From assembly GCF_044324785.1 (NCBI RefSeq), contig NZ_CP172127.1: a stretch of 64,000 nt of DNA, one strand, 5' to 3'. Origin of the DNA: Escherichia coli (GTDB lineage: Bacteria > Pseudomonadota > Gammaproteobacteria > Enterobacterales > Enterobacteriaceae). This document shows, one piece after another, positions 14,261 to 39,350 of the stretch (positions within the stretch are counted from its first letter, which is position 1; each line of letters starts with the position of its first letter). The notes beneath the pieces are model-generated. The model did no database searches and was not told the DNA's origin. It saw only the letters and a program-made list of their open reading frames with translations. The translations under genes were made by a program, and so were the position numbers.

Positions 14261-14262
14261 TG

Positions 14263-17091: not shown

Positions 17092-18111
17092 ATGAAAAGC
17101 ATTTTAATTGAAAAACCGAATCAACTGGCAATTATCGAACGCGAAATACCCACCCCGTCAGCGGGTGAAGTACGAGTAAAAGTGAAACTTGCCGGAATTT
17201 GTGGTTCAGATAGCCATATTTATCGTGGGCATAATCCTTTTGCGAAATATCCGCGCGTCATTGGTCATGAATTCTTTGGCGTCATTGATGCAGTGGGTGA
17301 AGGCGTGGAAAGCGACAGAGTCGGTGAACGCGTTGCTGTCGATCCGGTGGTCAGCTGTGGGCATTGCTATCCGTGCTCTATAGGTAAGCCGAACGTTTGT
17401 ACGACACTGGCTGTATTAGGTGTGCACGCTGACGGTGGTTTCAGTGAATATGCCGTGGTGCCGGCAAAAAATGCGTGGAAAATTCCTGAAGCAGTGGCCG
17501 ATCAATATGCGGTGATGATCGAACCTTTTACCATTGCGGCTAACGTTACCGGTCATGGTCAACCGACTGAAAATGATACCGTTCTGGTTTACGGCGCAGG
17601 TCCAATCGGCCTGACGATCGTTCAGGTATTAAAAGGCGTCTATAACGTTAAGAATGTGATTGTTGCCGATCGCATTGATGAACGACTGGAAAAAGCGAAA
17701 GAGAGCGGGGCAGACTGGGCGATTAATAACAGCCAGACACCGCTTGGCGAGATTTTCGCTGAAAAAGGCATAAAGCCGACATTAATTATCGATGCGGCTT
17801 GTCATCCTTCAATCCTGAAAGAAGCCGTAACGCTGGCTTCTCCAGCGGCACGTATTGTATTGATGGGCTTCTCCAGTGAACCGTCTGAAGTGATTCAGCA
17901 AGGAATTACCGGAAAAGAACTCTCTATTTTCTCTTCACGCTTAAATGCAAATAAATTCCCGGTCGTTATCGACTGGTTAAGTAAAGGGTTAATTAAACCA
18001 GAAAAACTAATTACCCATACGTTTGATTTCCAGCATGTTGCTGATGCCATTAGTTTATTTGAACAGGATCAAAAGCATTGCTGCAAAGTCTTACTCACTT
18101 TTTCTGAATAA
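17092..18111 (+). CDS. rspB: zinc-dependent alcohol dehydrogenase family protein RspB
   Basis: 339 aa from MKSILIEK, MDR zinc-ADH motifs (GICGSD, GHE), overlaps the rspA stop. Confidence 0.9.
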   Translation: MKSILIEKPNQLAIIEREIPTPSAGEVRVKVKLAGICGSDSHIYRGHNPFAKYPRVIGHEFFGVIDAVGEGVESDRVGERVAVDPVVSCGHCYPCSIGKPNVCTTLAVLGVHADGGFSEYAVVPAKNAWKIPEAVADQYAVMIEPFTIAANVTGHGQPTENDTVLVYGAGPIGLTIVQVLKGVYNVKNVIVADRIDERLEKAKESGADWAINNSQTPLGEIFAEKGIKPTLIIDAACHPSILKEAVTLASPAARIVLMGFSSEPSEVIQQGITGKELSIFSSRLNANKFPVVIDWLSKGLIKPEKLITHTFDFQHVADAISLFEQDQKHCCKVLLTFSE

Positions 18112-18168: not shown

Positions 18169-18261
18169 ATGACAATAGAAAAACACGAAAGAAGCACTAA
18201 GGATTTGGTGAAAGCAGCAGTATCGGGATGGCTGGGCACTGCGCTTGAATTTATGGATTTC
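18169..18261 (+). pseudogene. ydfJ: 5-prime fragment of MFS transporter gene ydfJ, truncated by prophage integration
   Basis: Reads MTIEKHERSTKDLVKAAVSGWLGTALEFMDF, then runs into AT-rich phage DNA and stops after 11 unrelated codons. Confidence 0.6.
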
Positions 18262-18298
18262 AAGAGTCATACGTGTCAACTATTTGATAAATATTAAA

Positions 18299-19594
18299 TT
18301 AATTTTTCATTGCTTCGTTATGGGGCATGGTTGGGGCAAACTCGCTTAACTGTGTATTTAACAAAGCTACCTGTGCATTATTGTTTTCAGACATCCATTT
18401 TCCGTATACCTGAAATACCATTTGCGCATCTGCATGGCCCATCTGGTTTGCTATAAATGCCGGATTAGCACCAGCTGTCAGCGACCAGCAGGCATAAGTA
18501 TGTCTCGACTGATATGATTTTCGATGGCGGAGTCCGGCACGTTTTATCGCTGCGTCCCACATCTGCCTTATTGAGTCAACGGTAAAATGGTCACCATAAT
18601 TTTTTACTCTCGCTGACACTTCAGGTTGAAAAACAAAGGTGCATTTATGTTTTTCTGTTCTGCCATACTCTCTGAGGTGAACATCAATGATATGCTCTTT
18701 GCTCAGTCTCGTTAATGTCATCTGACTCCGGAGAGCGTCGATTGCTGGCTTAATAAGATGAATGACCCGATTGGTTCCCGCCTGTGTTTTTGGTACCGTG
18801 AAACGGTCTTTTGCTAAATTTCTCCTGATCATCATTGTTCCATTTTTCAGATCTATGTCCTCCCATCCAAGTGCACACAGCTCACCAGGGCGAACGCCAG
18901 TATAAACAGAAACACACCATAAATTTTTGGCTTGCTGATTTCTGCACGCATCGATAAGACGGATGAATTCCTCCCGCGAAAGAGGATCCGGAATGGTTCT
19001 TGATTCCTTTAATGGCGAGATCCCCTTAAACGGGTTATCTGCCAGGTAACCGTTATCAACACCAAACTGGAACACGGCGTTAAGATTTGTCATGTAATTA
19101 TTTACAGTTACAGCCGATCTCCCTGGTTGTGTAACAATATAGTTACTTTTGGGGATCTGGTATCCAGTCAGTAGCTCTTTACGAACCTCCAGTAATTTTT
19201 CTTTATTAATCGATGAGGCAAGATTTTTTTCACCGATTATGCTCAGGATATTTTTGATGACGGCACGGTATGTGTTGAGTGATGTTTTTGCGACTTCAGT
19301 TTCTTTCAGTGCCAGAAATTTTTCAGCCAGTTCTTTTATGGTTAAATCTTGTCGAGTCTCACCAAATTTTTCCAGATTGCGTGAGGAGGGAAACTGTTTT
19401 GCATAGTCGAAAACACCAGTTTTTATTGCGTAACAAACAGAGGCGCGTAGCTCACCTGCAACGCGCCTGTTTTTTGCTGTGTCAGGAACCCCCAGGTTTT
19501 CCCTGACTCTTACGCCTTTATAAACAAACCAGATACGTAATTTCCCTCCATGGTTTTCCACGCCTGTCGGATATTTCATTTCAACTTCTCTCAT
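18299..19594 (-). CDS. phage tyrosine integrase
   Basis: 431-aa ORF at the prophage edge with C-terminal catalytic region (HTYACW...VYGKW); true start may be a few codons in. Confidence 0.85.
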   Translation of the reverse strand: MREVEMKYPTGVENHGGKLRIWFVYKGVRVRENLGVPDTAKNRRVAGELRASVCYAIKTGVFDYAKQFPSSRNLEKFGETRQDLTIKELAEKFLALKETEVAKTSLNTYRAVIKNILSIIGEKNLASSINKEKLLEVRKELLTGYQIPKSNYIVTQPGRSAVTVNNYMTNLNAVFQFGVDNGYLADNPFKGISPLKESRTIPDPLSREEFIRLIDACRNQQAKNLWCVSVYTGVRPGELCALGWEDIDLKNGTMMIRRNLAKDRFTVPKTQAGTNRVIHLIKPAIDALRSQMTLTRLSKEHIIDVHLREYGRTEKHKCTFVFQPEVSARVKNYGDHFTVDSIRQMWDAAIKRAGLRHRKSYQSRHTYACWSLTAGANPAFIANQMGHADAQMVFQVYGKWMSENNNAQVALLNTQLSEFAPTMPHNEAMKN

Positions 19595-19613
19595 TAGTTA
19601 GTGTGGCTTTTAG

Positions 19614-19865
19614 TCAAGTAAGATGACGTCTTGGTCTTGCTGATGCCTGGCGCTCAATCCAGCGATCAATTTCTTCCAGGTTGTAAAAGCATGGACTGTT
19701 ATCCCATGGCATACCGTCATGAGCGACATGCTTATATTCCCTTCCTTCCATAAACGATTTTTCCCGGGCCTTTTTTAACGTACCTTTTTTTATTCCTTTC
19801 AGCGCAATTAACTGCTCTTCGGATACCCATTTGCCGGGAGAGACAATCATGATTACTTCGCTCAT
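19614..19865 (-). CDS. putative excisionase
   Basis: 83-aa ORF immediately upstream of int with a GREY motif reminiscent of lambda Xis. Confidence 0.55.
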   Translation of the reverse strand: MSEVIMIVSPGKWVSEEQLIALKGIKKGTLKKAREKSFMEGREYKHVAHDGMPWDNSPCFYNLEEIDRWIERQASARPRRHLT

Positions 19866-19937
19866 CGATTTCTTTATCTCTTACATCAGACGAGCGCCGG
19901 TTGCAGAATACCAGTCACAACCGGCGACAGTTGAACA

Positions 19938-20282
19938 TTAAGAATCAGCCTGACTCGGGATCAGTTTTTGCCAGATAACTGAAACGTATTTTGCCTGGTA
20001 ACGGGCGTCATCAAGTGCATTATGGCGCTCACCTTCGAATGGAATAGCCGTTCTGGCATCGAAGTCTATGGCTTTCCCCAGCTCAACGATTGTGCGTACA
20101 TCGCGATCGTTGTAGTAACGCCACGGGCAGGGGATCCCCTGCCGTTCGTATGAACGGCGCAAAATCGTGTTGTCGAAGTTGGCTCCATTTCCCCAAACCT
20201 GAACAAAAAATTCACCGGAGTTTTCGTCGATAAATTCCCGCAATTGTAACAGTGCATCATCTAACGGGATTTCATCGGTCAT
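19938..20282 (-). CDS. C-terminal part of a split DEDDh 3-5 exonuclease (Exo II and Exo III motifs)
   Basis: WGNGANFD and HNALDDARY motifs; start overlaps the upstream stop as ATGA; the Exo I motif is in the preceding ORF. Confidence 0.7.
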   Translation of the reverse strand: MTDEIPLDDALLQLREFIDENSGEFFVQVWGNGANFDNTILRRSYERQGIPCPWRYYNDRDVRTIVELGKAIDFDARTAIPFEGERHNALDDARYQAKYVSVIWQKLIPSQADS

Positions 20283-22411
20283 AATGGCCGATTGCGCTTC
20301 GCGTGATTGCTCTTAAGCCACCATTTAATGGTGTCCCGATCAATGACTCCGCCAGCAGTTTCCAGATCGATAGTCTTACTAAATTCCGGTCCCATATCTC
20401 CGGTTTGCGGATCGAAAAATATTGCACCTATTGAGATGATCGGGGCATCAGGATTTTTTCCCATGGTTTCAAGGTCGATCATTAGATGGTCACACGTCCT
20501 GCTGGTGGATGTGATTTCGTGATGACCGTTCACCTTAATTGAGTGATCTGCCGTCTCGCCAGTTTCATTATCGCTATCGTGATGCTGATTGCCGCCAGCG
20601 TTCTCCTTGTGTGGATGTTCAGCGCCTTCCATTTCCTCCGGATCATCTTCCTGAACTTCAACCTGATACTCTTCATCGAATGTTTCTTGGTATGTTGCGT
20701 CGCCCATCACCGCGCCACAATCAGGGCAGTTGCCGCCGCCGGTCTGACCGCAAGCGGTGCAGACTTTTTCCACTTCCTGTTGCGCCACTGATTCAGGCTG
20801 TTTCGTTTCTGGCTCGTTTTGTAACGCATTTGGGCTGTTTTGTTCCGCTTTTTGGTAGTTCCGTTCCGATTCATGCTGGTTCTGGTTCACAGAATCGCGG
20901 GTCTGGATCCCCTTAACCCATTTCGGATCATTCGGGTCACTAATCCCTTCAACAAATTCACCACGTGATGCAGCAAGCAACTTATCGGCGTCAGGCTGGC
21001 TGATATTGGCTGCCTGCATAATTTTGTTTACTTCGTCAGCGGTAACTTTTATCGGCTCTGGTTGTTCTGAATCTTCAGCGGTATCTACATTTTGCGGTAA
21101 GCCCGTGTATGTGCCATTTTTTCGGGCAAAATATTCTTCTTTTGTGATTTCAGTGGCGCCAGCAGCCAGTGCCTTATCCAGACCAGAAAGTTTGTTTGCG
21201 CGACCGTATTTTTCTCCGTCCTTATCTGCGAAGAGGAAATAGAACGGCCCCTCACGCTCTACAGATGGTTCAGCTTCCGGTGCGGTTTCATTTTTTGGGA
21301 TATCAGATACCTCAGTTTCCACTGCATCAGTTTGTGTTTCTGATGACTTGAGAACATCAACAGTGCCCAGGTCTGTTTCTTCATTCTCAAACACGCCCTT
21401 TGTCGTCAGGTATTCGCAGATATATTTGTTCAGTGCTACGGGATCTTTGTGAATGTCGATCGGACGCTCACGGACAAGGCCAAAAATAGTTTGGCGGTCG
21501 TAGCGAAGGGCATCAGGCTGTTTGCGTATTGATGCCGAGATACGCTTCCAGTCTTCGCGGTCGTTGTCGATAACTTCATTTTTTGCCCAGCGATGGATGC
21601 TGCCGTCAATGTTTCCGGCATCCACATCACCAGGCCAGAGAGCGTAGGCCAGTTCGTCATCCAGTGTTTTCCATGTCTGCTTGTATTCGCGATGAATGGC
21701 AGCAATGACCGGGCTGATTTTTCCTGTTGAATTTTCAGTGTACTGTTGATTGGCTCTGGCGCGGGCGAGATCAACAACAGACGTGTATTTTCCGGTTTCC
21801 TTGCGTTCACCTTCGCGACGTTTTTTCCAGATGCGCATCTCTGCCTGAATTTCGGGCCATTTAGCACCAGGAATACATTTATGCTTAACCCACCCAATGG
21901 CGTGCAACTTAAGCTCCGGATACATGGCGTTAACTTCTGGCATTTTCATCAACGCTTCAACGATATGTCCGTTGAATGTTGCCATGTCTTCCTGCAACAA
22001 TTCCTGTGCGCTAATAACCATATCAACGGTGATGTTTTCACATGTGTCGAACTTAACCATGACAGCGTTCTGTACTTCAGGGGCCAGCTTGTCAAAAGTG
22101 ACGTTCATCGGATCGGATTCAGTCTCAACCGGGACAAAAGAAGCAGACTCCTCATCCCAGCGGTTTTCCTGCATATATTCAGCATCCCATGAATCGAGGG
22201 CAGGGCGGGGTATACCAGGTTTATCCTCGCAGACAATAAATTTATAAGCGCAGTCCTGAGCAGCCGGATAATGTTCCAGGAATTGCCAGTGAAATTTTGC
22301 TCGAGCACGGCGTTCGTCGCCAGCTTCAATGGCTGTGGCTACAGCCACAGCGCCTTCTTCCCTTGTTGCCAGTTCGTCAGGAATAGCGGCGCAAATAAAG
22401 ACTTTACTCAT
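20279..22411 (-). CDS. prophage exonuclease, N-terminal 710 aa (RecE/exodeoxyribonuclease VIII position) ending in an Exo I motif
   Basis: 710-aa ORF with acidic low-complexity middle, Cys4 zinc-ribbon (CTACGQTGGGNCPDCG) and C-terminal MIDLETMG motif. Confidence 0.7.
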   Translation of the reverse strand: MSKVFICAAIPDELATREEGAVAVATAIEAGDERRARAKFHWQFLEHYPAAQDCAYKFIVCEDKPGIPRPALDSWDAEYMQENRWDEESASFVPVETESDPMNVTFDKLAPEVQNAVMVKFDTCENITVDMVISAQELLQEDMATFNGHIVEALMKMPEVNAMYPELKLHAIGWVKHKCIPGAKWPEIQAEMRIWKKRREGERKETGKYTSVVDLARARANQQYTENSTGKISPVIAAIHREYKQTWKTLDDELAYALWPGDVDAGNIDGSIHRWAKNEVIDNDREDWKRISASIRKQPDALRYDRQTIFGLVRERPIDIHKDPVALNKYICEYLTTKGVFENEETDLGTVDVLKSSETQTDAVETEVSDIPKNETAPEAEPSVEREGPFYFLFADKDGEKYGRANKLSGLDKALAAGATEITKEEYFARKNGTYTGLPQNVDTAEDSEQPEPIKVTADEVNKIMQAANISQPDADKLLAASRGEFVEGISDPNDPKWVKGIQTRDSVNQNQHESERNYQKAEQNSPNALQNEPETKQPESVAQQEVEKVCTACGQTGGGNCPDCGAVMGDATYQETFDEEYQVEVQEDDPEEMEGAEHPHKENAGGNQHHDSDNETGETADHSIKVNGHHEITSTSRTCDHLMIDLETMGKNPDAPIISIGAIFFDPQTGDMGPEFSKTIDLETAGGVIDRDTIKWWLKSNHAKRNRPL

Positions 22412-22534
22412 TTTGTTTTAACCTCATGACAGATTTAAGGATGAACAAATCCCTGCCATTGCTGGCATATAAGAATGAAACCGGATATTTATTACGGAAC
22501 TGTTTTAAAGACCTGCCGGGATTTCGATATTATC

Positions 22535-22705
22535 CTAGTGAATAACTTTATCGACCGGGTAACAGTTACCGGGAATTTTCTGTTCGGTTGCTGCAGTCAT
22601 ACACTCCTGCATTGTCCTGTGAACACTGACTGCAATATCAACTGGCACTCCGGAAACAAGAAAAACTGTCAGAACAAGCGCAAATGCTGAATTCATTGTG
22701 CACAT
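22535..22705 (-). CDS. ydfD: small secreted/membrane protein at the YdfD (Qin lysis-protein) position
   Basis: Signal-like MNSAFALVLTVFLVSG directly downstream of dicB; start choice uncertain. Confidence 0.55.
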   Translation of the reverse strand: MCTMNSAFALVLTVFLVSGVPVDIAVSVHRTMQECMTAATEQKIPGNCYPVDKVIH

Positions 22706-22881
22706 CCTTTTGGCATCAGACGTAAACGAGCCAGCATTGAAACAATGCATATTTTATTTAATAGCTCCCGTTCTTGTTTTCTCTTGTTAATGGCATCTTC
22801 AGTAAATACAGGGTTACTGATAGTGACACCAATTTCAAAACAACCTTCAGACGTATTAACGTTTGGTAATAACGTTTTCAT
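22693..22881 (-). CDS. dicB: cell division inhibitor DicB
   Basis: 62 aa MKTLLPNVNTSEGCFEIGVTISNPVF... matches recalled DicB; internal start of the 97-aa ORF. Confidence 0.9.
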   Translation of the reverse strand: MKTLLPNVNTSEGCFEIGVTISNPVFTEDAINKRKQERELLNKICIVSMLARLRLMPKGCAQ

Positions 22882-23055
22882 TATCGCGCCCTCAACAATG
22901 AGTTTTGTGATGCGGTGCCTGGTGCCTCCAGGTGACGTTAACCAGTTAACAATTAACGCCGGATACAGAGAATCCACCCATAACACTGTTTTTGGTTTTA
23001 ACTGTTCCGCGTGCGCTCAGCCGCATTCACCACATCACAAAATTCACTTTAAAAA

Positions 23056-23108
23056 GGGCGGCAGAGCAGTCACGGAGTAAAACTGATACCGCCAAACGTC
23101 ACCAGAAA
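23056..23108 (-). ncRNA. dicF: DicF small regulatory RNA
   Basis: Minus strand reads TTTCTGGTGACGTTTGGCGGTATCAGTTTTACTCCGTGACTGCTCTGCCGCCC followed by a T-run, matching recalled DicF; lies between ydfC and dicB as in K-12. Confidence 0.85.
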
Positions 23109-23448
23109 ATTGATAACAGAGGGCGTTGCAGCGGGGTTGTCACTTAAGCGTATGGTCAACCTGACAACCCGGTGTCCTCAACGGGGAAGGAATAACCCCG
23201 CCATACTTACCGCCGCGCCATTTCGCGGGTTGCCACAACCGGAAGCGCACGGTCGACGAAAATTTAACGACAGGCTATCTATGAACCAGCTACCTCGCCG
23301 TGCGCTTTCGCGTTATGGTCTGACTTTTCAGGGAAATATCCTTTCAGTAAACTGTCAGTGCCGGATGCTCACCCGTGTCCGGCGCACGCACTCCACCTCA
23401 CCCGTGGAGAACTCCTTAATTACCAACCTTAGCTTCGTTGGTTAGCTA

Positions 23449-23667
23449 TTAACGCGGGTATGTAATCATTCTGGCAATGCTTAATGCCGCTGCTTTTTCC
23501 AGATTGGTGATATCCTGCTCCAGAGAGAACAGATTTTCAGCCTGCTTAGCCCTGGCTTCATTAGCCCATTTCAGATCCTGCGCTGCATTAATTTTCTGGT
23601 GCATCCACTCATAAAGTTCATCATCGGTATAGTCTGGCGCGATGATAACGGGTTCTCGTTTCTGCAT
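23449..23667 (-). CDS. ydfC: Qin-type protein YdfC
   Basis: 72-aa ORF in the conserved dicB operon position. Confidence 0.8.
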   Translation of the reverse strand: MQKREPVIIAPDYTDDELYEWMHQKINAAQDLKWANEARAKQAENLFSLEQDITNLEKAAALSIARMITYPR

Positions 23668-23696
23668 ACTGATTCCTTGCGGTGCTGTTTCGCTTA

Positions 23697-23825
23697 TCAG
23701 CCGTTAGATTTTGCCGAACTGGAAAGCGCCTGTTTAAATTCGCTGAAGCTGAGAGCTTCTTCGCCTTCGGCAAGGCCTTCGAAGTATTCTTCGTAAGCCT
23801 TTTCCATGATTGTGTCGAAATCCAT
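23697..23825 (-). CDS. ydfB: Qin-type small protein YdfB
   Basis: Manual translation MDFDTIMEKAYEEYFEGLAEGEEALSFSEFKQALSSSAKSNG, 42 aa, below the ORF-track length cutoff. Confidence 0.75.
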   Translation of the reverse strand: MDFDTIMEKAYEEYFEGLAEGEEALSFSEFKQALSSSAKSNG

Positions 23826-23826
23826 A

Positions 23827-23982
23827 TCACCCACCTGAATTTCTTTCCAGCCAGCGACGCGCTCCAGATTCGGTTTTAAACGTTTTGCTTTTGGTATACG
23901 TCATTGCGGTGAACGTGCCGTCCTGGTTTGGAAACACGCCGTACACCAGAGATTCGTTGTTGCCAAGATCGATAGTATCCAT
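23827..23982 (-). CDS. ydfA: Qin-type small protein YdfA
   Basis: 51 aa from MDTIDLGNNESLVYGVF, first gene of the dicB operon. Confidence 0.8.
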   Translation of the reverse strand: MDTIDLGNNESLVYGVFPNQDGTFTAMTYTKSKTFKTESGARRWLERNSGG

Positions 23983-24095
23983 GCTGACCTCATTTCCCCT
24001 TAACGCCGGGGTAGCGGAACTGTTTGCTGAGAACACCGTGCGGTGTCTTGATGGAAAATAATTTAGAATAACCTAACATGAGAGGCAAGTGTTTT

Positions 24096-24113
24096 TGTTA
24101 GATTGATCTAACA
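24096..24113. promoter_or_regulatory. 18-bp palindromic operator (TGTTAGA-N4-TCTAACA) in the dicB-operon promoter region
   Basis: Perfect palindrome tgttagattgatctaaca between dicA and ydfA; same half-sites as the site at 24607-24624. Confidence 0.5.
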
Positions 24114-24149
24114 AAAAGGGTGGGCGCAACTAATCACTTGAAAAGAATG

Positions 24150-24557
24150 TTATTTTATTGATTTATTTTTACGCGCTTTAAGCATTTCTTCGAAGAGTTT
24201 GTTGAAGTTTTCTACTCTTGCGCGCATTTCAGACAGCAAGGCTTCCTGCTCGGAAGATGGAAGAGCATCGAATAATTCGATCAATTCTTTGTGGTTGGGA
24301 GTTAGCTCTGTTTCCACATGAAGTTCTTGTGCAGGCACTGGTGCCTTGTCTTCGTCACCAAACATTAGCCATGTAGGTGAGCACTTCAGAGCATCCGCTA
24401 AAGCAAACAATCGTTTTCCGACTGGCTGGGTTTCGTCTCTTTCCCATTGTGAAATTGTGACGTGAGCAACTCCAGCGAGGCGCGCGGCTTCTCGTTGTGT
24501 TAAGCGTAATTCTTTTCGTCGCGCCAGAACTCGCTGGCCCAGGGTTCTTGTATCCAT
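24150..24557 (-). CDS. dicA: Cro/C1-type HTH repressor, DicA-like
   Basis: 135 aa with N-terminal HTH (LRLTQREAARLAGVAHVTISQWE); divergent from dicC. Confidence 0.8.
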   Translation of the reverse strand: MDTRTLGQRVLARRKELRLTQREAARLAGVAHVTISQWERDETQPVGKRLFALADALKCSPTWLMFGDEDKAPVPAQELHVETELTPNHKELIELFDALPSSEQEALLSEMRARVENFNKLFEEMLKARKNKSIK

Positions 24558-24606
24558 AGTTAGGTAATTCTAATTTTTCTTGACTTAGGTATCCCGCGCA
24601 CAATAA

Positions 24607-24624
24607 TGTTAGAAAAGTCTAACA
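24607..24624. promoter_or_regulatory. 18-bp palindromic operator in the dicA-dicC divergent promoter region
   Basis: tgttagaaaagtctaaca just upstream of the dicC start, with a TTGACT -35-like hexamer at 24580-24585. Confidence 0.5.
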
Positions 24625-24634
24625 AGAGGGGGAT

Positions 24635-24865
24635 TTGATGCTTAAAGTTGACGCAATTACTTTTTTTGGCAGCAAAACAAAGCTTGCCAATGCCGCAGGA
24701 GTGAGGCTGGCAAGTGTTGCTGCTTGGGGGATACTGGTTCCTGAAGGTCGCGCGATGCGTCTACAGGAGGCATCTGGCGGGGAGCTTCAGTATGATCCCA
24801 AAGTTTATGATGAATATCGTAAGACGAAGCGGGCGGGGCGGTTGAACAATGAAAATCACTCCTGA
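24635..24865 (+). CDS. dicC: Cro-like regulator DicC
   Basis: 76 aa; C-terminal RAMRLQEASGGELQYDPKVYDEYRKTKRAG matches recalled DicC. Confidence 0.8.
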   Translation: MMLKVDAITFFGSKTKLANAAGVRLASVAAWGILVPEGRAMRLQEASGGELQYDPKVYDEYRKTKRAGRLNNENHS

Positions 24866-25370
24866 ACAGGCTCGTGAGGCTCTGGATGCCTGGATATGTC
24901 GACCAGGAATGACACAGGAGCAGGCGACGATATTAATCACTGAAGCATTCTGGGCTTTGAAAGAGCGCCCGAACATCGATGTTCAGCGTGTCACAGATGA
25001 AGGTGGCGCGGTTGATCAGCGAGCGCTTGGTGTTAATCGAGTGAAGATATTCGAACGCTGGAAGGCTATCGACACCAGGGATAAGCGTGAAAAGTTCACG
25101 GCGCTAGTGCCTGCGATTATGGAGGCTATCCGGATTAGTGATTTCAGGTTGTATCGTGAAATTACTGACGGAAAAAGCATCACGTGCATGATCGCCGGGT
25201 TAAACAAAGAATATGGCGATGTGGTGGAGTCCGGACTGCTTTTTGCTGATCCTGCCGTAGTGGATCGTGAAACTGACGAACTTATAGAAAAAGCAATTGC
25301 TTTCAAGCTTGCGTATCGACAGCAATACCAACAAAAAGCTGGATGGAATTATGAGCCTTCTTTTTGCTGA
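24849..25370 (+). CDS. hypothetical phage early protein (cII/YdaT position)
   Basis: 173-aa ORF overlapping the dicC stop; function not recognisable from sequence. Confidence 0.45.
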   Translation: MKITPEQAREALDAWICRPGMTQEQATILITEAFWALKERPNIDVQRVTDEGGAVDQRALGVNRVKIFERWKAIDTRDKREKFTALVPAIMEAIRISDFRLYREITDGKSITCMIAGLNKEYGDVVESGLLFADPAVVDRETDELIEKAIAFKLAYRQQYQQKAGWNYEPSFC

Positions 25371-26316
25371 ACGCCCACTGGTTATAAACACGCAGCTGGC
25401 AATGAAAATTGGCTTAAACGAAGCCATTGTTTTGCAACAACTGCACTACTGGTTGAGAGATACCAACTCCGGCATGGAATGTGATGGTGTTCGCTGGATT
25501 TATAACACAACGGAACAATGGCTGGAACAGTTCCCATTCTGGTCAGAGTCAACGTTAAAGCGCGCGTTTGCAAGTCTGAAAACGCTGGGGCTTTTGCGTT
25601 GTGAAAAGCTCAATAAATCAAAGCGCGATATGACCAATTTCTACACGATCAACTATGGGAGCGAGCTTTTAGATGGTGGCAAATTGAGCGAATCCATCGG
25701 TTCAAAATGCGCCGCTCCATCAGGTCAAAATGACACGATGGAAGAGGTCAAAATGAAACGCTCCATTGATTCAAAACGACCCAATGTCATCGGGTCAAAA
25801 TGGCCTGATGATCTTACAGAGAATACAACAGAGATTACTACAGAGAATAAAAACACTTTTCGTCCGGAAGCTTCGCAACCGGACCCGCAGACGACTGAAC
25901 AGGATTTTTTAACCCGGAACTCCGACGCGGTTGTGTTTAGTGCGAAAAAACGCCAGTGGGGTAGCAGGGAGGATTTGGCGTGTGCGCAGTGGATCTGGGG
26001 GCGGATCGTGGGTCTCTACGAACAGGCAGCCAGTGATGATGGCGAGATCATGCGACCAAAAGAGCCTAACTGGACTGCCTGGGCCAATGACGTGCGCACA
26101 ATGCGGATGCTGGATGGCAGAAGCCACAGACAAATTTGCGAAATGTTTGGTCGGGTTCAGCGAGATCCATTCTGGGTAAAAAACATCATGAGCCCGTCAA
26201 AGCTCCGCGAAAAATGGGACGAACTGGTCATCCGCCTGGGACGTTCACCTGTACAGCGTTGTGTTAATCATATTTCTGAACCGGATACAGAAATTCCGCC
26301 TGGTTTCAGAGGATAA
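25297..26316 (+). CDS. phage replication initiation/organizer protein (O-like)
   Basis: N-terminal winged-helix replisome-organizer-like region, acidic linker, conserved C-terminal domain; true start probably MSLLFAERP at 25351. Confidence 0.6.
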   Translation: MLSSLRIDSNTNKKLDGIMSLLFAERPLVINTQLAMKIGLNEAIVLQQLHYWLRDTNSGMECDGVRWIYNTTEQWLEQFPFWSESTLKRAFASLKTLGLLRCEKLNKSKRDMTNFYTINYGSELLDGGKLSESIGSKCAAPSGQNDTMEEVKMKRSIDSKRPNVIGSKWPDDLTENTTEITTENKNTFRPEASQPDPQTTEQDFLTRNSDAVVFSAKKRQWGSREDLACAQWIWGRIVGLYEQAASDDGEIMRPKEPNWTAWANDVRTMRMLDGRSHRQICEMFGRVQRDPFWVKNIMSPSKLREKWDELVIRLGRSPVQRCVNHISEPDTEIPPGFRG

Positions 26317-26356
26317 GTGTTGATTTCAGGTCATGAGGTAATTTTAAGGGGGACTT

Positions 26357-26779
26357 GTGGCAAAAGTTTTTACACAAGAAGAGCGGGAAAAAATTAAATG
26401 GCAGGTGGTGGAACTCGTGCGCCAGAGCGGCCGTGAGACGTTACGGCAACTGGAAGCTAAAACAGGTGCGACTAGATATCTGATGAGCGTTCTTGCCAGA
26501 GAGCTGGTAGCCAGTGGCGATGTATACAACTCCGGCTACGGGTTATTCCCCTCTGAACAGGCGCGTAAGGACTGGCAAAACGCCCGCAAAAAACTCTCGA
26601 GGGCAAAGGTGAAGAAACCTGCTGTGGTTGATCCGGACCTTATCTGGTCATCACCTGACGGAGAAATACGTCGCTACGACAGTCGCCTAAACATAATCTG
26701 TCGCGAGTGCCGGAAGAGCGAAGTTATGCAGCGCATACTGGCTTTCTATCAGGGTAATTTTCAGGACGTGGCGCAGTGA
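26357..26779 (+). CDS. hypothetical phage protein
   Basis: 140-aa ORF with good coding character, no recognisable motif. Confidence 0.45.
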   Translation: MAKVFTQEEREKIKWQVVELVRQSGRETLRQLEAKTGATRYLMSVLARELVASGDVYNSGYGLFPSEQARKDWQNARKKLSRAKVKKPAVVDPDLIWSSPDGEIRRYDSRLNIICRECRKSEVMQRILAFYQGNFQDVAQ

Positions 26780-27210
26780 GTGCACCGGCAACCATTCTTG
26801 ATATGTGCTGTGGCAGCCGCATGTTCTGGTTCGATAAGTCTGACGAACGGGCGATATTTAGCGATATCAGAAAAGAAGGATACACATTACGCAATGGGAG
26901 ACGCTTGATTATCAGCCCTGACATTATCGCAGATTTTCGTGCATTATCATTTGCAGACGCATCTTTTTCGATGGTTGTATTAGACCCTCCGCATCTTGAG
27001 CGTGTTGGTGATAACGCCTGGATGGGAAAGAAATATGGACGGCTGAATAAAGATGCCTGGCGTGATGATTTGCGACAGAGATTTAAAGAAGCTTTTCGGG
27101 TGTTGAGGCCGCACGGCGTTCTGATTTTTTAATGGAATGAAACGCAAATACCGGTAAGCCAGATTCTGGCACTGACAGATAGAAAGCCTGTTATCTGTCA
27201 ACGAACAGGG
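26776..27210 (+). pseudogene. truncated phage DNA methyltransferase (amino-MTase with DPPH motif)
   Basis: VLDPPHL catalytic motif; stop inside a T-run at 27130-27132, similarity continues about 26 codons in-frame after it. Confidence 0.6.
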
Positions 27211-27554
27211 AAAAAACGATAAAACCCACTGGATTATTTTTATGAAAGAGGCATCCAGTGAGTAGATTCGTAAGGTTACAGATACGTATATCTGAATAAT
27301 TAAATTCAGTTCTGTAAATAAAACTTAATCCTTAACCGGATGGATTTCTGCACCCTCAGAACATCAGGAGGCCGCCCGAAAGGGCGGTAGTGAAATGCGA
27401 AAGTTCAAAATTATTATTGAAACGGGAATAGCTGGTGGAGATTTTGAGGATGTATTCGAAGTGGACGATGACGCAACACCTGATGAAATTCATGACGGAG
27501 CATAAGAAATTTTCTTTAACTACTGCAATTACTCATACCACGAAATAAAAGACG

Positions 27555-28030
27555 ATGAGGAAGAACAAAGTGGCTGATTTTTGTTCAGCTAAATATAACA
27601 TCAGTTTTGAAGAGCGGGATGAACTATTAATGGACTATGGTGAGTTACGCGGTGGAAGTGCTGCTGATGTCGAATCCTAGCGTGATGACTATGAAGCGGG
27701 AAAAACTCCGGTCGAAGCATATTGTGAGGAGTGGGGCGATGAATGAGCGAGATTAATTATCAGGAAGGGCATGAAACGGCGGGGCAAGCAAAACCAGTGA
27801 CATGGCGATATCGCTACGTGAAAAAAGGCGTTACGGACTTTCAGGGGAAGTAGTGGTCTGGTGACTGGAAATATGTACCGAAAAAAGAGGATTGTAACGA
27901 CAGGCCGAACTATCAAATTCAGGCCTTATTCACTGCCTCACCAGTCCCGGTTACATCAGAAGAATTGGTTAAAGCTGTGCACTTTTATGAACAACTAAAA
28001 CGCGAAAATCCACCAACATCCGGCAACTAG
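27555..28030 (+). pseudogene. two translationally coupled small ORFs, each interrupted by one in-frame TAG
   Basis: Frame-0 ORF 27555-27746 has TAG at 27678; overlapping frame-2 ORF 27743-28030 (MSEINYQEGHE...) has TAG at 27851. Confidence 0.35.
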
Positions 28031-28284
28031 ATTAATGGGTTAACTATGTCGGTTAAACGACCAGCCAACTGAAAAAGCGGAAACCTGATTACAGGTTGCC
28101 AGATAAGGCAATGAGCTACCTGGCGCGGAACGGACTGATAAGTATGGGGAATGTTTTACGATGAACCTTTAGACTAAAGAGTTTGTAACGCTATGTAAGT
28201 GATTTTTTCTGGTTTAGATATTTATATGTCCGGCCAAATTGAGGTGTGTTTAAATGTAATTGCACATTGATTGTAGGAGGAATA

Positions 28285-28464
28285 ATGAAAAACGCATTGC
28301 AGTTTTTGTTTGTTGCGTTCTGGTTGTTCGCATCATGTATGCCCATCATCTTCACAGCAAGGTATATGGAAAAAGTTGATGTTTTGATATTAATATTTGG
28401 ATATATAAATGCCCTTTTTTTAGGGGTGTTCATGGCGGTCATGTGCATTGAATACTGGCGGTAA
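28285..28464 (+). CDS. small two-helix membrane protein, unknown function
   Basis: 59 aa from MKNALQFLFVAFWLFASCMPIIF, preceded by AGGAGG Shine-Dalgarno. Confidence 0.45.
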   Translation: MKNALQFLFVAFWLFASCMPIIFTARYMEKVDVLILIFGYINALFLGVFMAVMCIEYWR

Positions 28465-29755
28465 ATACAGCGAACTCCATTGGTTTAGTTGGATATTTAC
28501 TGTGCTGGACAAAAACGGTTTGCGGGGAAATCTTAGTTAAGTAGAATGACTGCGGGTGCTTGAGGCTATCTGCCTCGGGCACGAACACCAACGGCAGGTA
28601 GAGAAAAGCCCCAGTTAACATTACGCGTCCTGCAAGACGCTTAACATTAATCTGAGGCCAATTTCATGCCAGACACATGTAGGTTAGCCTCTTACGTGCC
28701 GAAAGGCAAGGAGAAGCAGGCTATTGTTAACACCAAGCTGTAATGTCCCCTTTGAACCATTCTAAAATGTCCCCAGACAATTCTCTGGGGGATTTTTCAT
28801 GACCAAAGAAACTGTTACGATGAGTCATAAGGAACTCCACCGACTTCAGATTATTCAGGAGTCAATTAATCGACATATTACTCAGGAACAAGCTGCGGCA
28901 CGCATTGGCATTTCTATTCGGCAGGTTAAACGTCTGGTGCAACGGTATAGAAATGAAGGGCCTTCTGGTCTGGTTTCCCACCGACGTGGAAAGCGTCCTA
29001 ATAATTCCTTTTCTACTGAATTCAGAGCAACAGTAATTTTACTCCTCAAAGGCCGTTACGCTGATTTTGGACCTACGTTTGCGTGCGAAAAATTGCGCGA
29101 GATACACGGTTTATCTTTATCCGTTGAAACTCTCAGAAAGTGGATGATAGAAGAGGGGGGTATGGCGTGAACGCCGTCGTAAAATTGCCCGTATATATCA
29201 ACGCCGCATGCGACGACCATCTTACGGTGAACTGATCCAGATTGATGGCTCACCTCATGACTGGTTTGAAAATCGAGGCCCCAGATGTACACTGATCGTT
29301 TTCATTGATGATGCCACCAGTGCGTTGATGGCGTTGCGTTTTGTGCCTGCTGAAACAACCCGGGCTTACATGGAAACCCTCCGGGGTTACCTTAATGATC
29401 ATGGCGTACCGCTCGCTCTCTACTCTGATAGACACAGTATATTCAGGGTAAATAACCCAGAGCGGGAAGGTGAGCTGACCCAGTTCACTCGTGCGATAAA
29501 GACACTGGGCATCGAGCCAATCCATGCCAACAGCCCGCAGGCAAAAGGGCGGGTAGAGCGCGCCAATCAGACACTACAGGACAGGCTGGTCAAAGAAATG
29601 CGGCTTCAGAATATCAGTGATATTGAAACAGCAAATGCATGGTTGCCGACCTTTATTGAAGCCTATAACAACCGGTTCGCTACGTCGCCTCGTACTACTG
29701 ATAATGCTCATCTTGATGTGCACCATTCTGAAGAGGAACTGGGTTATATCTTCAG

Positions 29756-29764
29756 CCTACAGGC
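29756..29764. repeat. 9-bp target site duplication (CCTACAGGC), left copy
   Basis: Identical 9-mer immediately flanks both ends of the IS. Confidence 0.8.
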
Positions 29765-30821
29765 GGCTTTGTTGAATAAATCAGATTTCGGGTAAGTCTC
29801 CCCCGTAGCGGGTTGTGTTTTCAGGCAATACGCACGCTTTCAGGCATACCTGCTTTCGTCATTTTGTTCAGCGCTCGTACCAGGGCCATAGCCTCCGCAA
29901 CCTGACCATCGTAGTCACGCAGCGTCAGTGAACCCCCGAACAGCTGTTTTACCCGGTACATCGCCGTTTCCGCTATCGAGCGACGGTTGTAATCTGTTGT
30001 CCATTTCCACCGCGCATTACTCCCGGTCATTCGCTGATTAGCCACTGCACGGTTACGGTCTGCATATTCACCGGGCCAGTAACCCGCACCTTTTCGGGGA
30101 GGGATAAGCGCGCTGATTTTCTTACGCCGCAGTTCATCGTGACATAGCCGGGTATCGTAAGCGCCATCGGCGGCGGCTGACCTGATTTTCCGGTGGGTTT
30201 GCCGGATTAACCCGGGGAAGGCCTCTGAGTCCGTAACGTTGTTCAGCGACAGGTCAGCGCAGATGATTTCATGTGTTTTACTGTCAACGGCGAGATGCAG
30301 CTTACGCCAGATACGGCGGCGTTCCTGGCCATGCTTTTTGACTTTCCACTCGCCTTCACCGAAGACCTTCAGCCCGGTGGAATCAATTACCAGGTGTGCG
30401 ATTTCACCCCGGGTGGGCGTTTTGAAACTGACATTAACCGACTTTGCCCGCCTGCTGACACAGCTGTAATCCGGGCAGCGTAGCGGAACGTTCATCAGAG
30501 AAAAAATGGAATCAATAAAGCCCTGCGCAGCCCGCAGGGTCAGCCTGAATACGCGTTTAATGACCAGCACAGTAGTGATGGCAAGGTCAGAATAGCGCTG
30601 AGGTCTGCCTCGTGAAGAAGGTGTTGCTGACTCATACCAGGCCTGAATAGCTTCATCATCCAGCCAGAAAGTTATGGAGCCACGGTTGATGAGGGCTTTA
30701 TTGTAGGTGGGCCAGTTGGTGATTTTGAACTTTTGCTTTGCCACGGAACGGTCTGCGTTGTCGGGAAGATACGTGATCTGATCCTTCAACTCAGCAAAAG
30801 TTCGATTTATTCAACAAAGCC
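29765..30821 (-). mobile_element. IS903-group insertion sequence (IS5 family), 1057 bp
   Basis: Perfect 18-bp terminal inverted repeats GGCTTTGTTGAATAAATC, 1057-bp length and 9-bp duplication typical of IS903/IS102. Confidence 0.9.
29821..30744 (-). CDS. IS903-type DDE transposase
   Basis: ORF inside the IS with DDE residues and YREK-like signature; probable GTG start giving 307 aa. Confidence 0.85.
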   Translation of the reverse strand: MAKQKFKITNWPTYNKALINRGSITFWLDDEAIQAWYESATPSSRGRPQRYSDLAITTVLVIKRVFRLTLRAAQGFIDSIFSLMNVPLRCPDYSCVSRRAKSVNVSFKTPTRGEIAHLVIDSTGLKVFGEGEWKVKKHGQERRRIWRKLHLAVDSKTHEIICADLSLNNVTDSEAFPGLIRQTHRKIRSAAADGAYDTRLCHDELRRKKISALIPPRKGAGYWPGEYADRNRAVANQRMTGSNARWKWTTDYNRRSIAETAMYRVKQLFGGSLTLRDYDGQVAEAMALVRALNKMTKAGMPESVRIA

Positions 30822-30830
30822 CCTACAGGC
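30822..30830. repeat. 9-bp target site duplication (CCTACAGGC), right copy
   Basis: Direct repeat of 29756-29764. Confidence 0.8.
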
Positions 30831-31642
30831 GAAGCGCGTTCTGTCTAAAAATCTCACTTTCCAGTACAAAAGCAGTGCGTTTCAGGTACGCAGTGAGGGC
30901 CGGGGATATCGACTTAGGCATTCGGTTGTTACTGTATGCGAGAACTTTGACGGTGAAATTAACGTTCTGTATGACGGGAAAGCGCTGGGCTGGGAAAAGT
31001 ATGTTGATGGCCCGGAGCCTATACCACTGGATGATGAAAAGAGTGTCCATGAACGAGTGGATAATGCCCGTATTGATTTACGCTCAAAATACTATGTTAA
31101 ACCTAAAGCTGACCATCCCTGGCTTACGCGCCGAACGCAAAGTCATCAGCAAGTTAAGCCCCCGAAGTTACCTAAAAAGAAGCCTGATCCCGATAAAAAA
31201 GATTGAAACCAAGATCGATTCGGTTGAGTGCATATCCATTCATAGGGTAGATTCTTAAGTCGCGTTTCTGGTGTTCATTTTCGGGTGGTTTGTTACTTGT
31301 TTTACCGGGGATATGCCAGAAACGCGCTGAGTCAGTCTGGGCGGTGCGCGTAATGAGGCGTTATGGTAAATAGCCTATGCTAATGTCCGCTAAGAGCAAG
31401 AAGCGGAAGTTGGCAGTTTTGTGGACTGTCCCCACAAATGTGACTACAGAAATAGTTGCAATTCATAATTGATCATGGGTTGTCAGTTAAACTCGTGGCG
31501 ATTTAAATAGACTAATTGGGAGTGCGTCCATTACTTATATCTTGTAATGTTAACTATCAGAAATGATACAAAGATAATATGTCTTTAAAGAAAAGGCTGA
31601 TGGCGAAAAGTGGCCCGATGAGGGCCACAATACGGCTGTCAC

Positions 31643-31975
31643 TTAGACGTAAATATCAATGGTGCCAGCGGTATTTGTATCGTCTTTTTTCTCTTCTTTT
31701 TTATCAGGCTGAACTGTCGCGTCTTTATTCTTTTTCTCTGCCTGCTGCCTTAACAACTGCTCCAGTTGAGCCCTGAGGCTTTCAATTTGCTTCTGTACCA
31801 ATGCAGCCATTTCTTTTTTCTGCTGTGTCGTCATCCCCTCTTCCGATGAGATTTTCCCAAGCTTTTCAGTCAGCACCTGAATTTGTCTTGTGATTTTGGC
31901 TATTTCTGATGTTCCTTCCGGGGCGGAGTTGTTTGAAATAACGGTTGAGGTATTTCCCTGAATTGTGACAGACAT
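31643..31975 (-). CDS. flxA: FlxA (sigma-28-dependent prophage protein)
   Basis: 110 aa MSVTIQGNTSTVISNNSAPEG... matches recalled FlxA. Confidence 0.9.
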   Translation of the reverse strand: MSVTIQGNTSTVISNNSAPEGTSEIAKITRQIQVLTEKLGKISSEEGMTTQQKKEMAALVQKQIESLRAQLEQLLRQQAEKKNKDATVQPDKKEEKKDDTNTAGTIDIYV

Positions 31976-31999
31976 AGATTTCTCCTTTTAAAAAAGCAC

Positions 32000-32026
32000 T
32001 ATCGGCATGCACAAAAAAATCTTTAA
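32000..32026 (-). promoter_or_regulatory. sigma-28 (FliA) promoter for flxA
   Basis: Minus strand TAAAGATT-N11-GCCGATAG against consensus TAAAGTTT-N11-GCCGATAA, about 25 bp upstream of the flxA start. Confidence 0.65.
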
Positions 32027-32177
32027 TCGTATTTCTTGTGTCATTAATTGTTTGATGTTCAGATTGTTTTCCTCGCGGGCTGGCGCGCCTCAGAAAGTAA
32101 AGCTTGTTGACAGGGGTAAACGTTCGGCAATAATTTTCTGCCGCATGCGGGTGTTGCATAAAACGTGCTACGTTCCT

Positions 32178-32483
32178 TTATCGACAGGTCAGGTCACCGC
32201 TCACCCGCCGACGAGAAAGCAACACTGACATGCTAAAGCAAAAAATAGATGAATAAGTTGAGTTGTGCATATGTAGCCTGACCGTCACAAAGTATATGGT
32301 GTCTGTACCAGTAAGATGATGGCCGGACTCTTTAAAAACGAGCTGACCTGCACAATACAGGATGGACTTAGCAATGGCTGCTCCTGGCACAAAGCGGACA
32401 GTGATCACCGTTCTTACGACTACTTTCTGACTTCCTTCGTGACTTGCCCTAAGCATGTTGTAGTGCGATACTTGTAATGACAT
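32178..32483 (-). CDS. ydfV: hypothetical protein at the YdfV position
   Basis: 101-aa ORF between flxA and relB. Confidence 0.55.
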   Translation of the reverse strand: MSLQVSHYNMLRASHEGSQKVVVRTVITVRFVPGAAIAKSILYCAGQLVFKESGHHLTGTDTIYFVTVRLHMHNSTYSSIFCFSMSVLLSRRRVSGDLTCR

Positions 32484-32507
32484 TTGTAATTACAAGAGGT
32501 GTAAGAC

Positions 32508-32747
32508 ATGGGTAGCATTAACCTGCGTATTGACGATGAACTTAAAGCGCGTTCTTACGCCGCGCTTGAAAAAATGGGTGTAACTCCTTCTGAAGCGCTT
32601 CGTCTCATGCTCGAGTATATCGCTGACAATGAACGCTTGCCGTTCAAACAGACACTCCTGAGTGATGAAGATGCTGAACTTGTGGAGATAGTGAAAGAAC
32701 GGCTTCGTAATCCTAAGCCAGTACGTGTGACGCTGGATGAACTCTGA
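32508..32747 (+). CDS. relB: RelB antitoxin
   Basis: 79 aa MGSINLRIDDELKARSYAALEKMGVTPSEALR... matches recalled RelB. Confidence 0.9.
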   Translation: MGSINLRIDDELKARSYAALEKMGVTPSEALRLMLEYIADNERLPFKQTLLSDEDAELVEIVKERLRNPKPVRVTLDEL

Positions 32748-33034
32748 TGGCGTATTTTCTGGATTTTGACGAGCGGGCACTAAAGGAATGGCGAAAGCTG
32801 GGCTCGACGGTACGTGAACAGTTGAAAAAGAAGCTGGTTGAAGTACTTGAGTCACCCCGGATTGAAGCAAACAAGCTCCGTGGTATGCCTGATTGTTACA
32901 AGATTAAGCTCCGGTCTTCAGGCTATCGCCTTGTATACCAGGTTATAGACGAGAAAGTTGTCGTTTTCGTGATTTCTGTTGGGAAAAGAGAACGCTCGGA
33001 AGTATATAGCGAGGCGGTCAAACGCATTCTCTGA
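32747..33034 (+). CDS. relE: RelE mRNA-interferase toxin
   Basis: 95 aa MAYFLDFDERALKEWRKLGSTVREQLKKKL..., start overlaps the relB stop. Confidence 0.9.
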   Translation: MAYFLDFDERALKEWRKLGSTVREQLKKKLVEVLESPRIEANKLRGMPDCYKIKLRSSGYRLVYQVIDEKVVVFVISVGKRERSEVYSEAVKRIL

Positions 33035-33105
33035 ACCAAAGCATGACATCTCTGTTTCGCACCGAAGGTGACACTTCTGCTTTGCGTTGACAGGAGAAGC
33101 AGGCT

Positions 33106-33261
33106 ATGAAGCAGCAAAAGGCGATGTTAATCGCCCTGATCGTCATCTGTTTAACCGTCATAGTGACGGCACTGGTAACGAGGAAAGACCTCTGCGAGGT
33201 ACGAATCCGAACCGGCCAGACGGAGGTCGCTGTCTTCACAGCTTACGAACCTGAGGAGTAA
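33106..33261 (+). CDS. hokD: Hok-family membrane toxin HokD (RelF)
   Basis: Manual translation MKQQKAMLIALIVICLTVIVTALVTRKDLCEVRIRTGQTEVAVFTAYEPEE, 51 aa, below the ORF-track cutoff. Confidence 0.85.
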   Translation: MKQQKAMLIALIVICLTVIVTALVTRKDLCEVRIRTGQTEVAVFTAYEPEE

Positions 33262-33477
33262 GAGACCCGGCGGGGGAGAAATCCCTCGCCACCTCTGATG
33301 TGGCAGGCATCCTCAACGCACCCGCACTTAACCCGCTTCGGCGGGTTTTTGTTTTTATTTTCAACGCGTTTGAAGTTCTGGACGGTGCCGGAATAGAATC
33401 AAAAATACTTAAGTAGCGCGCAGGGATAAGAGGGATGGTCCCTTAAAGGGGAGAGCTAATTATCCGGAAGGATTCTG

Positions 33478-33729
33478 ATGATGAACATCGAAGAACTGCG
33501 TAAAATTTTTTGTGAAGATGGCCTCTATGCTGTGTGCGTTGAAAATGGAAATCTTGTTAGTCATTACCGCATTATGTGTTTGCGAAAGAATGGGGCTGCG
33601 TTAATTAATTTTGTGGATGCTCGGGTCACGGACGGATTTATCTTGCGCGAAGGTGAGTTTGTCACTTCATTACAGGCATTGAAAGAGATCGGAATAAAAG
33701 CTGGCTTTTCTGCTTTTTCAGGAGAATAA
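33478..33729 (+). CDS. rem: Rem protein (function unknown)
   Basis: 83-aa ORF after relBE-hokD as in Qin. Confidence 0.7.
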   Translation: MMNIEELRKIFCEDGLYAVCVENGNLVSHYRIMCLRKNGAALINFVDARVTDGFILREGEFVTSLQALKEIGIKAGFSAFSGE

Positions 33730-33795
33730 ACTCATCTACAATCTTGCGCGGGGCTGAACTCCCGCTGAGTAACACCGTGCCACCGGAGAAAACCG

Positions 33796-34074
33796 ATGGC
33801 ACGCAACGCAAAATATTACAATTCTGATAATTCGCCCGTTCTTGCCTGCACGCACGGGCGGTATTCTCACGCATTCAAGTCTGAATGGTTCCAGCACCCT
33901 CCATGCACTGCAGAACAGGCCGAATGGCTGATTCATTCTTACCGCAGGCGCGGGTTCGAGGTTAAGAAAGCTCTCAGTCTCGACTATCGGCACTGGATAA
34001 TCTCTGTCAGGCTGCCTTATTCCGAACGCCCACCACGTGCGTCCCGCACTTTCCAGCAACGGATCTGGAGGTAA
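33796..34074 (+). CDS. hypothetical ORF, possibly the frameshifted 5-prime part of ydfU
   Basis: 92-aa ORF overlapping the next ORF start by 38 nt in another frame. Confidence 0.35.
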   Translation: MARNAKYYNSDNSPVLACTHGRYSHAFKSEWFQHPPCTAEQAEWLIHSYRRRGFEVKKALSLDYRHWIISVRLPYSERPPRASRTFQQRIWR

Positions 34075-35125: not shown

Positions 35126-35138
35126 GTGGAGAACGAGC

Positions 35139-35891: not shown

Positions 35892-36312
35892 ATGATTTTT
35901 GCTGAAGATGGCGACATGATGTTTGCATTTTTCAAAAAATATGGATAAAATTTTTTCAACGATGGGCTTTGTATACCCGACGTTAAGAAAAAGTAGAAAA
36001 CCCGCTGATGAGCGGGTTTTGTGCTTTAAATGGGGCAATGGTAATGTTGAATCTCATCCCGGGACTCATGTCTGTTAACTTATTATTTAGCTGGTGACTT
36101 GGTTATTTGCCTGATGTTTAAAATGTTTTCTTCCAGTACAATGTCCCTAAACACAATGAGTCTGCTTATTATATTATTAGCAGAGCTATTACGGCCAAAG
36201 TACAGCATAAGCTTTTAAAGCCAATCAACCAGTCATCAAGACAGACGGGGTTATTCATAAAAACTCTCCATGTGTGATCCGATGGGGCCTGAAATTAAAG
36301 CTTTAATATAGC

Positions 36313-36525
36313 TCATGAAAGGTAAACATTGGCAGCTGAAGGGCCACGCAGACCATTTATCCGGCAAAATTCCACGCGTAATCCGGTGGTAATTTCTTCT
36401 GCATCGCGGAGATTGAGCGCTGAGACATGAAGCTGGACATCGATACGACCATCGGATGGGGTGATAAGACCCTTGCCGCTTTTGCCGTCAAAGGTTTTGA
36501 CAATTCCTGTCATTTTACGGGACAA
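36313..36525 (-). CDS. cspF: cold-shock-domain protein CspF
   Basis: 70-aa CSD ORF, divergent type. Confidence 0.85.
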
Positions 36526-37322: not shown

Positions 37323-37346
37323 AAACCCGCTCAGGCGGGTTTTTTA
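37323..37346 (+). terminator. intrinsic terminator after cspB
   Basis: aaacccgc-tcag-gcgggttt hairpin followed by a T-run. Confidence 0.6.
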
Positions 37347-38010: not shown

Positions 38011-38014
38011 TCCA

Positions 38015-38326: not shown

Positions 38327-39350
<1,024 letters not shown>

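Follow-up and report, generated by a model that had tools for sequence, protein, structure and literature searches.

The ydfJ junction of an Escherichia coli chromosome, very probably the left attachment site of a Qin-type, lambda-like prophage

Introduction

The left attachment site of phage lambda (attL, BOP') has a short core, an IHF site about 20-30 bp off and tandem arm-type repeats about 60-80 bp off, with int and xis reading away from it. Phage 21, found in icd, is an intragenic integrator that repairs its target.

Rac is integrated in ttcA, where the target gene is repaired (PMC6379469). For Qin, the same review gives integration at the 5' end of ydfJ and describes the consequence for that gene as the loss of the promoter and the truncation of 28 N-terminal codons (PMC6379469). 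Lambda-like prophages integrated in ydfJ are also described from STEC under the name 'PPydfJ' (Nakamura et al. 2021, PMC8112680); the legend of S7 Fig of that report mentions an '18- or 19-bp att sequence', defined from attP, attB, attL and attR. An attL at ydfJ is already known as the Qin/PPydfJ integration site, a standard and often occupied lambdoid locus in E. coli (PMC6379469, PMC8112680).

Here the boundary of an integrated element is described from a 64,000-nt stretch of E. coli DNA, referred to as the window. This boundary is very probably the attL (B-O-P') that arose when a tyrosine integrase inserted a temperate, lambda-like phage of the Qin type, by site-specific recombination, at the 5' end of ydfJ, a gene for an MFS transporter. 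An earlier note, made from the sequence without database searches, had already suspected a left prophage junction here. The features are summarized in Table 1.

Table 1. Features at the ydfJ junction (window coordinates unless another location is named)
Feature	Location	Strand	Remarks
rspB	17092..18111	+	Last intact host gene left of the junction; collinear with the annotated rspB of CE-O153H30 (L001 3193-4212, offset +13899)
5' ydfJ fragment	18169..18261	+	Start codon and codons 1-31; 100% identity to the intact ydfJ of CE-O153H30
Chimeric junction ORF	18169..18297	+	42 aa, from 31 ydfJ codons and 11 phage-derived codons; homologue of K-12 ynfP (36 aa)
attL core	18246..18264	+	gcgct, TGAATTTATGGATTTCAAG (19 bp), agtca; left part from attB, right part from attP
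Crossover block	18253..18261	+	ATGGATTTC (9 bp); sole strictly identical block of attB and attP
Lambdoid prophage body	18262..64000	.	Runs past the window end; at least 45.7 kb of the window
P' arm	18265..18340	.	Identical to the DNA right of the core in mEp460_ev081 and PhiR42_1; extent estimated from candidate protein-binding sites
Candidate H'-like IHF site	18277..18289	-	Exact match to the IHF consensus WATCAANNNNTTR (TATCAAATAGTTG); 20-32 bp from the core centre
Tyrosine integrase	18299..19594	-	431-aa ORF; start of RefSeq relatives 5 codons later
Candidate arm-type integrase sites	18321..18338	+	Tandem TGGGGCA-N4-TGGGGCA, the sole such tandem in the window; part of the int coding sequence
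Excisionase	19614..19865	-	83 aa; Pfam DUF1233 (putative excisionase), 1.6e-31; annotated as excisionase in relatives
attB	Empty site, ydfJ codons 27-32		gcgct, TGAATTTATGGATTTCCAG, ttata
attP	Free phages		acctg, TGAATT-ATGGATTTCAAG, agtca
attR	IAI1, K-12		acctg, TGAATT-ATGGATTTCCAG, ttata

Junction and occurrence

The host neighbourhood in the window (ynfM ... ynfE/F, speG, ynfB, ynfA, rspA and rspB) is collinear with annotated genomes and is that of an E. coli-type chromosome. In the host part (window 1-18261) the identity to the two strains that were aligned with it is 97.8-98.3%. Among 5426 complete E. coli genomes the closest reach 98.6% in the host and early region and 99.4% in the late region, with no identical match.

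The genome of CE-O153H30 carries the empty site, in the gene order rspB-ydfJ-ydfI-ydfZ-rspR. Window 13900-18264 forms an unbroken host alignment with it at 98.3% identity, and nothing beyond 18264 aligns. Base by base, the agreement is perfect up to 18261; a mismatch at 18262 is followed by two matching bases and then by noise. The left prophage boundary lies at 18261/18262, within a core at 18246-18264, and the position of about 18262 given in the earlier note was exact to the base. The description of the surroundings in that note also holds: the ORF that follows the end of rspB agrees base for base with intact ydfJ over its first 31 codons, and the abrupt change to AT-rich DNA before the integrase gene is seen as a fall in G+C from 0.43 (18169-18261) to 0.24 (18262-18298), the low-G+C spacer of 37 bp reaching up to the int stop codon. 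The split gene is a host transporter gene, as proposed. Integration into a tRNA gene is ruled out, since the target is the coding sequence of ydfJ and no tRNA or tmRNA gene was detected with ARAGORN in the whole 64-kb window.

Window 17900-18700 was searched against the 5426 complete E. coli genomes, and matches with at least 80% query coverage (rspB plus the same integrase) were assigned to the junction class. The same rspB-integrase junction was found in 2662 genomes (about half), and an uninterrupted attB in 2009. A second class of matches covers only query positions 1 to 362 or 365, equivalent to a last matching base at window 18261-18264, and is annotated as rspB followed by 'ydfJ: MHS family MFS transporter YdfJ'. 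Empty-site genomes thus provide the uninterrupted ydfJ that the note had proposed for comparison: they carry an unbroken rspB-ydfJ-ydfI, and the homology to them ends at these same bases.

Attachment sites and strand exchange

A search of the window with up to three mismatches gave no repeat of the junction sequence, and ydfJ from codon 32 onward is likewise absent; the right end of the prophage is therefore located outside the window. The far end is seen in relatives. The complete genomes closest to window 40000-64000 are those of NCTC11129, G47-1 and IAI1 (99.4%). IAI1 has the same rspB-int left junction, with two cores 47.8 kb apart. Past the equivalent of the window end, the order in IAI1 is the remaining part of the tail fibre gene, tfaQ, pinQ, ydfK, ynfT, a ydfJ pseudogene annotated as 'missing N-terminus', ydfI, ydfZ and rspR. 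The homology to ydfJ restarts in IAI1 at position 4347 of the CE-O153H30 locus (L001), and the left homology ends at L001 4362/4365, which leaves an overlap of 16-19 bp. In both IAI1 and K-12 Qin the far prophage end consists of attR and then ydfJ from codon 32 onward; the truncated ydfJ of RefSeq K-12 starts at an ATG inside the core.

The attR of IAI1 is located at position 40033 of its locus (L003), and the window end corresponds to L003 37034. By this comparison, the right junction of the window prophage is predicted about 3.0 kb past base 64000, where it would read CACCTG-TGAATTATGGATTTCCAG-TTATATTCGC, followed by ydfJ codons 32-455 and ydfI. The expectation in the earlier note of a direct repeat of 18255-18270 was correct as to the existence of a repeat, which is found as the second core of IAI1 and K-12 only, but not as to its coordinates; it occupies 18246-18264 and is imperfect (18/19 bp). 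The 3' remainder of ydfJ, likewise expected at the far end, lies behind the second core in these two genomes and is absent from the window, where the prophage runs past 64000.

In its common form, TGAATT(T)ATGGATTTC(A/C)AG, the core also occurs in the attP of the phages mEp460_ev081, HannyBb and PhiR42_1. Two places in the core distinguish attB from attP, namely an extra T at 18252 on the left and C vs A at 18262 on the right, and the core measures 19 bp in attB and attL and 18 bp in attP and attR. In the attL of the window the left of these places agrees with attB and the right one with attP, the attR of IAI1 and K-12 has the opposite combination, and the attP of the three phages is composed exactly of the left part of attR and the right part of attL. 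Such marker segregation is the signature of a reciprocal site-specific exchange. Because the two markers sort to opposite junctions, strand exchange is confined to the 9-bp block between them. We infer a lambda-like overlap of about 7 bp inside this block.

These observations also bear on another origin of the break in ydfJ, in which a deletion, a rearrangement caused by IS elements or a prophage-prophage inversion would have left an illegitimate junction beside an integrase gene by chance. In STEC, prophages at ydfJ and ompW are reported to recombine and to undergo inversions with one another (PMC8112680), and the window prophage carries IS elements. Against this, the position of the junction is identical to the base in K-12, IAI1 and FDAARGOS_497, the same rspB-integrase junction recurs in approximately 2660 genomes, the sequence on the phage side is exactly that of the attP of free phages, and the two attB/attP polymorphisms segregate as predicted for reciprocal site-specific exchange. 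An illegitimate rearrangement is extremely improbable and was rejected on account of the reciprocal att structure.

With site-specific integration as the preferred reading, excision, if the prophage is still capable of it, would be predicted to yield the phage core TGAATTATGGATTTCAAG and to restore the host core TGAATTTATGGATTTCCAG. The attP core of phage Tritos (L006 1487-1504) carries a G-to-C change inside the 9-bp block, ATGCATTTC vs ATGGATTTC. Judged from the sequence, the presumed overlap region of Tritos would thereby be heterologous to attB.

Integrase, excisionase and P' arm

The integrase matches the Pfam families Arm-DNA-bind_2 (5.6e-24) and Phage_integrase (3.9e-18). When aligned with the structure of Tn1549 Int (6EMY), the residues R235, K269, R364, H387 and the nucleophile Y397 correspond, with Y361 at the position of the first His. 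The int-xis segment is 98.9-99.8% identical to that of the phages mEp460_ev081, HannyBb, Tritos and PhiR42_1, the four phage records in which attP was read.

The P' arm overlaps the final 14 codons of int. Exact matches to the IHF consensus number five in the 64-kb window, both strands counted. The C/T polymorphism at 18277, to which the two lengths of the junction ORF (42 aa here, 36 aa in K-12) are due, coincides with the final R of this consensus as read on the other strand, and the consensus is matched with either allele. In 4.6 kb of mEp460_ev081, the motif TGGGRCA has only four matches; all lie on one strand, no more than 150 bp from the core, and they form two pairs with a spacing of 11 bp. 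The second of these pairs belongs to the P arm, approximately 130-145 bp left of the core, an arm that is not part of the window. A generic repeat search of attP returned further short two-copy families (GAAAAAAC, CAACTAT...) besides the TGGGRCA pairs. The IHF-consensus match and the TGGGRCA repeats are candidate binding sites of the P' arm, and their positions resemble those of the H' and arm-type sites of lambda attP.

Fate of ydfJ and the junction ORF

During integration, strand exchange between the phage attP core TGAATT-ATGGATTTCAAG and the attB core of the chromosome, TGAATTTATGGATTTCCAG, would have taken place within the shared 9-bp sequence. On the rspB side, the promoter of ydfJ, its ribosome-binding site and its first 31 codons are joined to DNA of the P' arm, and the fusion reads as the 42-aa chimeric ORF. 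The rest of ydfJ (about 424 codons) would have been moved to the far end of a prophage of about 48 kb, without a promoter. As the 3' part has neither the promoter nor the N-terminal codons, the gene is inactivated and not rebuilt.

The translation of the junction ORF is MTIEKHERSTKDLVKAAVSGWLGTALEFMDFKSHTCQLFDKY, of which MTIEKHERSTKDLVKAAVSGWLGTALEFMDF derives from ydfJ and KSHTCQLFDKY, followed by the stop codon, from the phage. K-12 MG1655 annotates the equivalent 36-aa ORF as ynfP. The difference between 42 and 36 aa results from a single codon, CAA (window 18277-18279) vs TAA in K-12. VanOrsdel et al. list YnfP (36 aa) with the small proteins that their tagging study detected (PMC6001520). 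Both the annotation in K-12 and this detection speak for an independent, selected small-protein gene (ynfP) that would be more than a leftover of ydfJ. Such a gene is nevertheless very unlikely: the translation start and the first 31 codons of a ynfP-type ORF belong to ydfJ, the shift of the phage-derived tail between the 36-aa and 42-aa forms by one CAA/TAA change argues against constraint on the tail, no Pfam family was found for the 42-aa ORF, and expression of YnfP is expected merely from the surviving initiation region of ydfJ. As a primary reading, the independent gene was rejected on account of the 31 initial codons, which come from ydfJ, and the ORF is taken here as a ydfJ/phage chimera.

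The initiation region of ydfJ appears to be still active. There is a very slight chance that the surviving promoter and start have been co-opted, producing the 42-aa YnfP variant and a transcript across the P' arm, antisense to the 3' end of int; transcription entering from rspAB-ydfJ upstream could in that case modulate integrase expression or the accessibility of attL, and hence excision.

Properties of the prophage

Among the genes of the prophage is a lambda-like set for terminase, portal, capsid, tail, J, lom and tail fibre. PhiR42_1, a complete phage record of 48,668 bp with the stated host ECOR13, covers 94% of window 18262-43000 at 99.2% identity.

The copy in the window shows some decay (exo frameshift, IS insertions). 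In exo (RecE-like exodeoxyribonuclease VIII; 19938-22411, minus strand), a 2-bp insertion (CT) at 20310-20311 produces ORFs of 710 aa and 114 aa, with the intact 2472-bp gene of FDAARGOS_497 as reference; this frameshift is either a real inactivation or else a sequencing error. In the early region (28799-30789), two ORFs of 123 aa and 195 aa represent a broken ISNCY-family (ISEsa1-like) transposase, which abuts a complete IS5-family transposase (322 aa, minus strand).

The exo frameshift and the disrupted ISNCY transposase with its neighbouring IS5-family insertion would suit an element reduced, as K-12 Qin is, to a short cryptic remnant rather than a full-length prophage, the junction then being a fossil without a functional right end. 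This is unlikely in view of the extent of the prophage DNA in the window (Table 1), its head and tail genes, which form a complete lambda-like set, the coverage by PhiR42_1, and int and xis, which are both intact. The interpretation as a full-length prophage is preferred.

Matches at the Rfam gathering score were obtained for the DicF sRNA (23056-23107, minus strand), the sok antitoxin RNA of hok/sok (28554-28725, plus strand) and two cspA-type thermoregulator leaders (36665-37057 and 39568-39953, both plus strand). DicF, sok and the cspA-type RNAs are typical Qin-type cargo. The G+C content is only 35-40% at 36-42 kb of the window, in the second half of the region where the early and late parts join. 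The tail-fibre region at 62001-63000 is unusual in composition, with a G+C content of 0.62 and an AT skew of 0.40; the overlapping long ORFs there, at 61974-62981 (plus strand) and 62074-63345 (minus strand), have no NCBIfam match.

For annotation, the left prophage boundary is fixed to the base, with strand exchange within 18253-18261, and a predicted location is available for the right boundary, about 3 kb past the window end. The 42-aa ORF is a homologue of ynfP and no new gene, and the host is left with one transporter gene less between rspAB and ydfI. As ydfJ is a documented and very frequently occupied lambdoid site, no new biology is implied.

Comparison with known systems

One of the closest described elements is Qin of K-12, with attL at ynfP/intQ and attR at ydfJ (b1543). 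Its insertion point, in ydfJ codons 29-31, is identical. The attL core of Qin is that of the window and its attR core that of IAI1, and both ynfP and the boundary of the Qin feature coincide with the window junction. The neighbours rspB and ydfJ'-ydfI are the same, as is the type of integrase, and DicF, dicB, relBE, hokD/sok, csp genes and pinQ are cargo that Qin has in common with the window or its closest relatives. Qin differs in being a remnant of about 20.5 kb with intQ truncated by IS2, whereas the window carries an intact integrase ORF, an excisionase and a full head and tail module. The junction ORF has 36 aa in Qin and 42 aa in the window.

The 'PPydfJ' lambda-like prophages of STEC (PMC8112680) are likewise integrated in ydfJ. 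Their att sequence of 18 or 19 bp, as given in that figure legend, agrees with the window in a comparison by length only; the T3SS effector loci and secondary attB sites that the report describes belong to those prophages. The attP of mEp460_ev081, HannyBb and PhiR42_1 supplies the exact phage side of the window attL; these phages and Tritos are unintegrated genomes, unlike the window prophage.

With lambda attL, the junction shares its layout, in which the IHF consensus and the arm-type-like repeats are sequence matches here, and an N-terminal arm-binding domain in the integrase. The arm domain of the window integrase comes from a different Pfam family (Arm-DNA-bind_2), and the P' arm of the window overlaps the 3' end of int. 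The target of lambda is the gal-bio intergenic region, whereas that of the window phage is inside a coding gene, and the core sequences are unrelated.

As in phage 21 at icd and Rac at ttcA, a lambdoid integrase acts here on a protein-coding gene. Those two elements repair their target. Unlike them, the phage in the window brings no replacement gene end, and ydfJ, minus its promoter and first 28-31 codons (PMC6379469), is inactivated.
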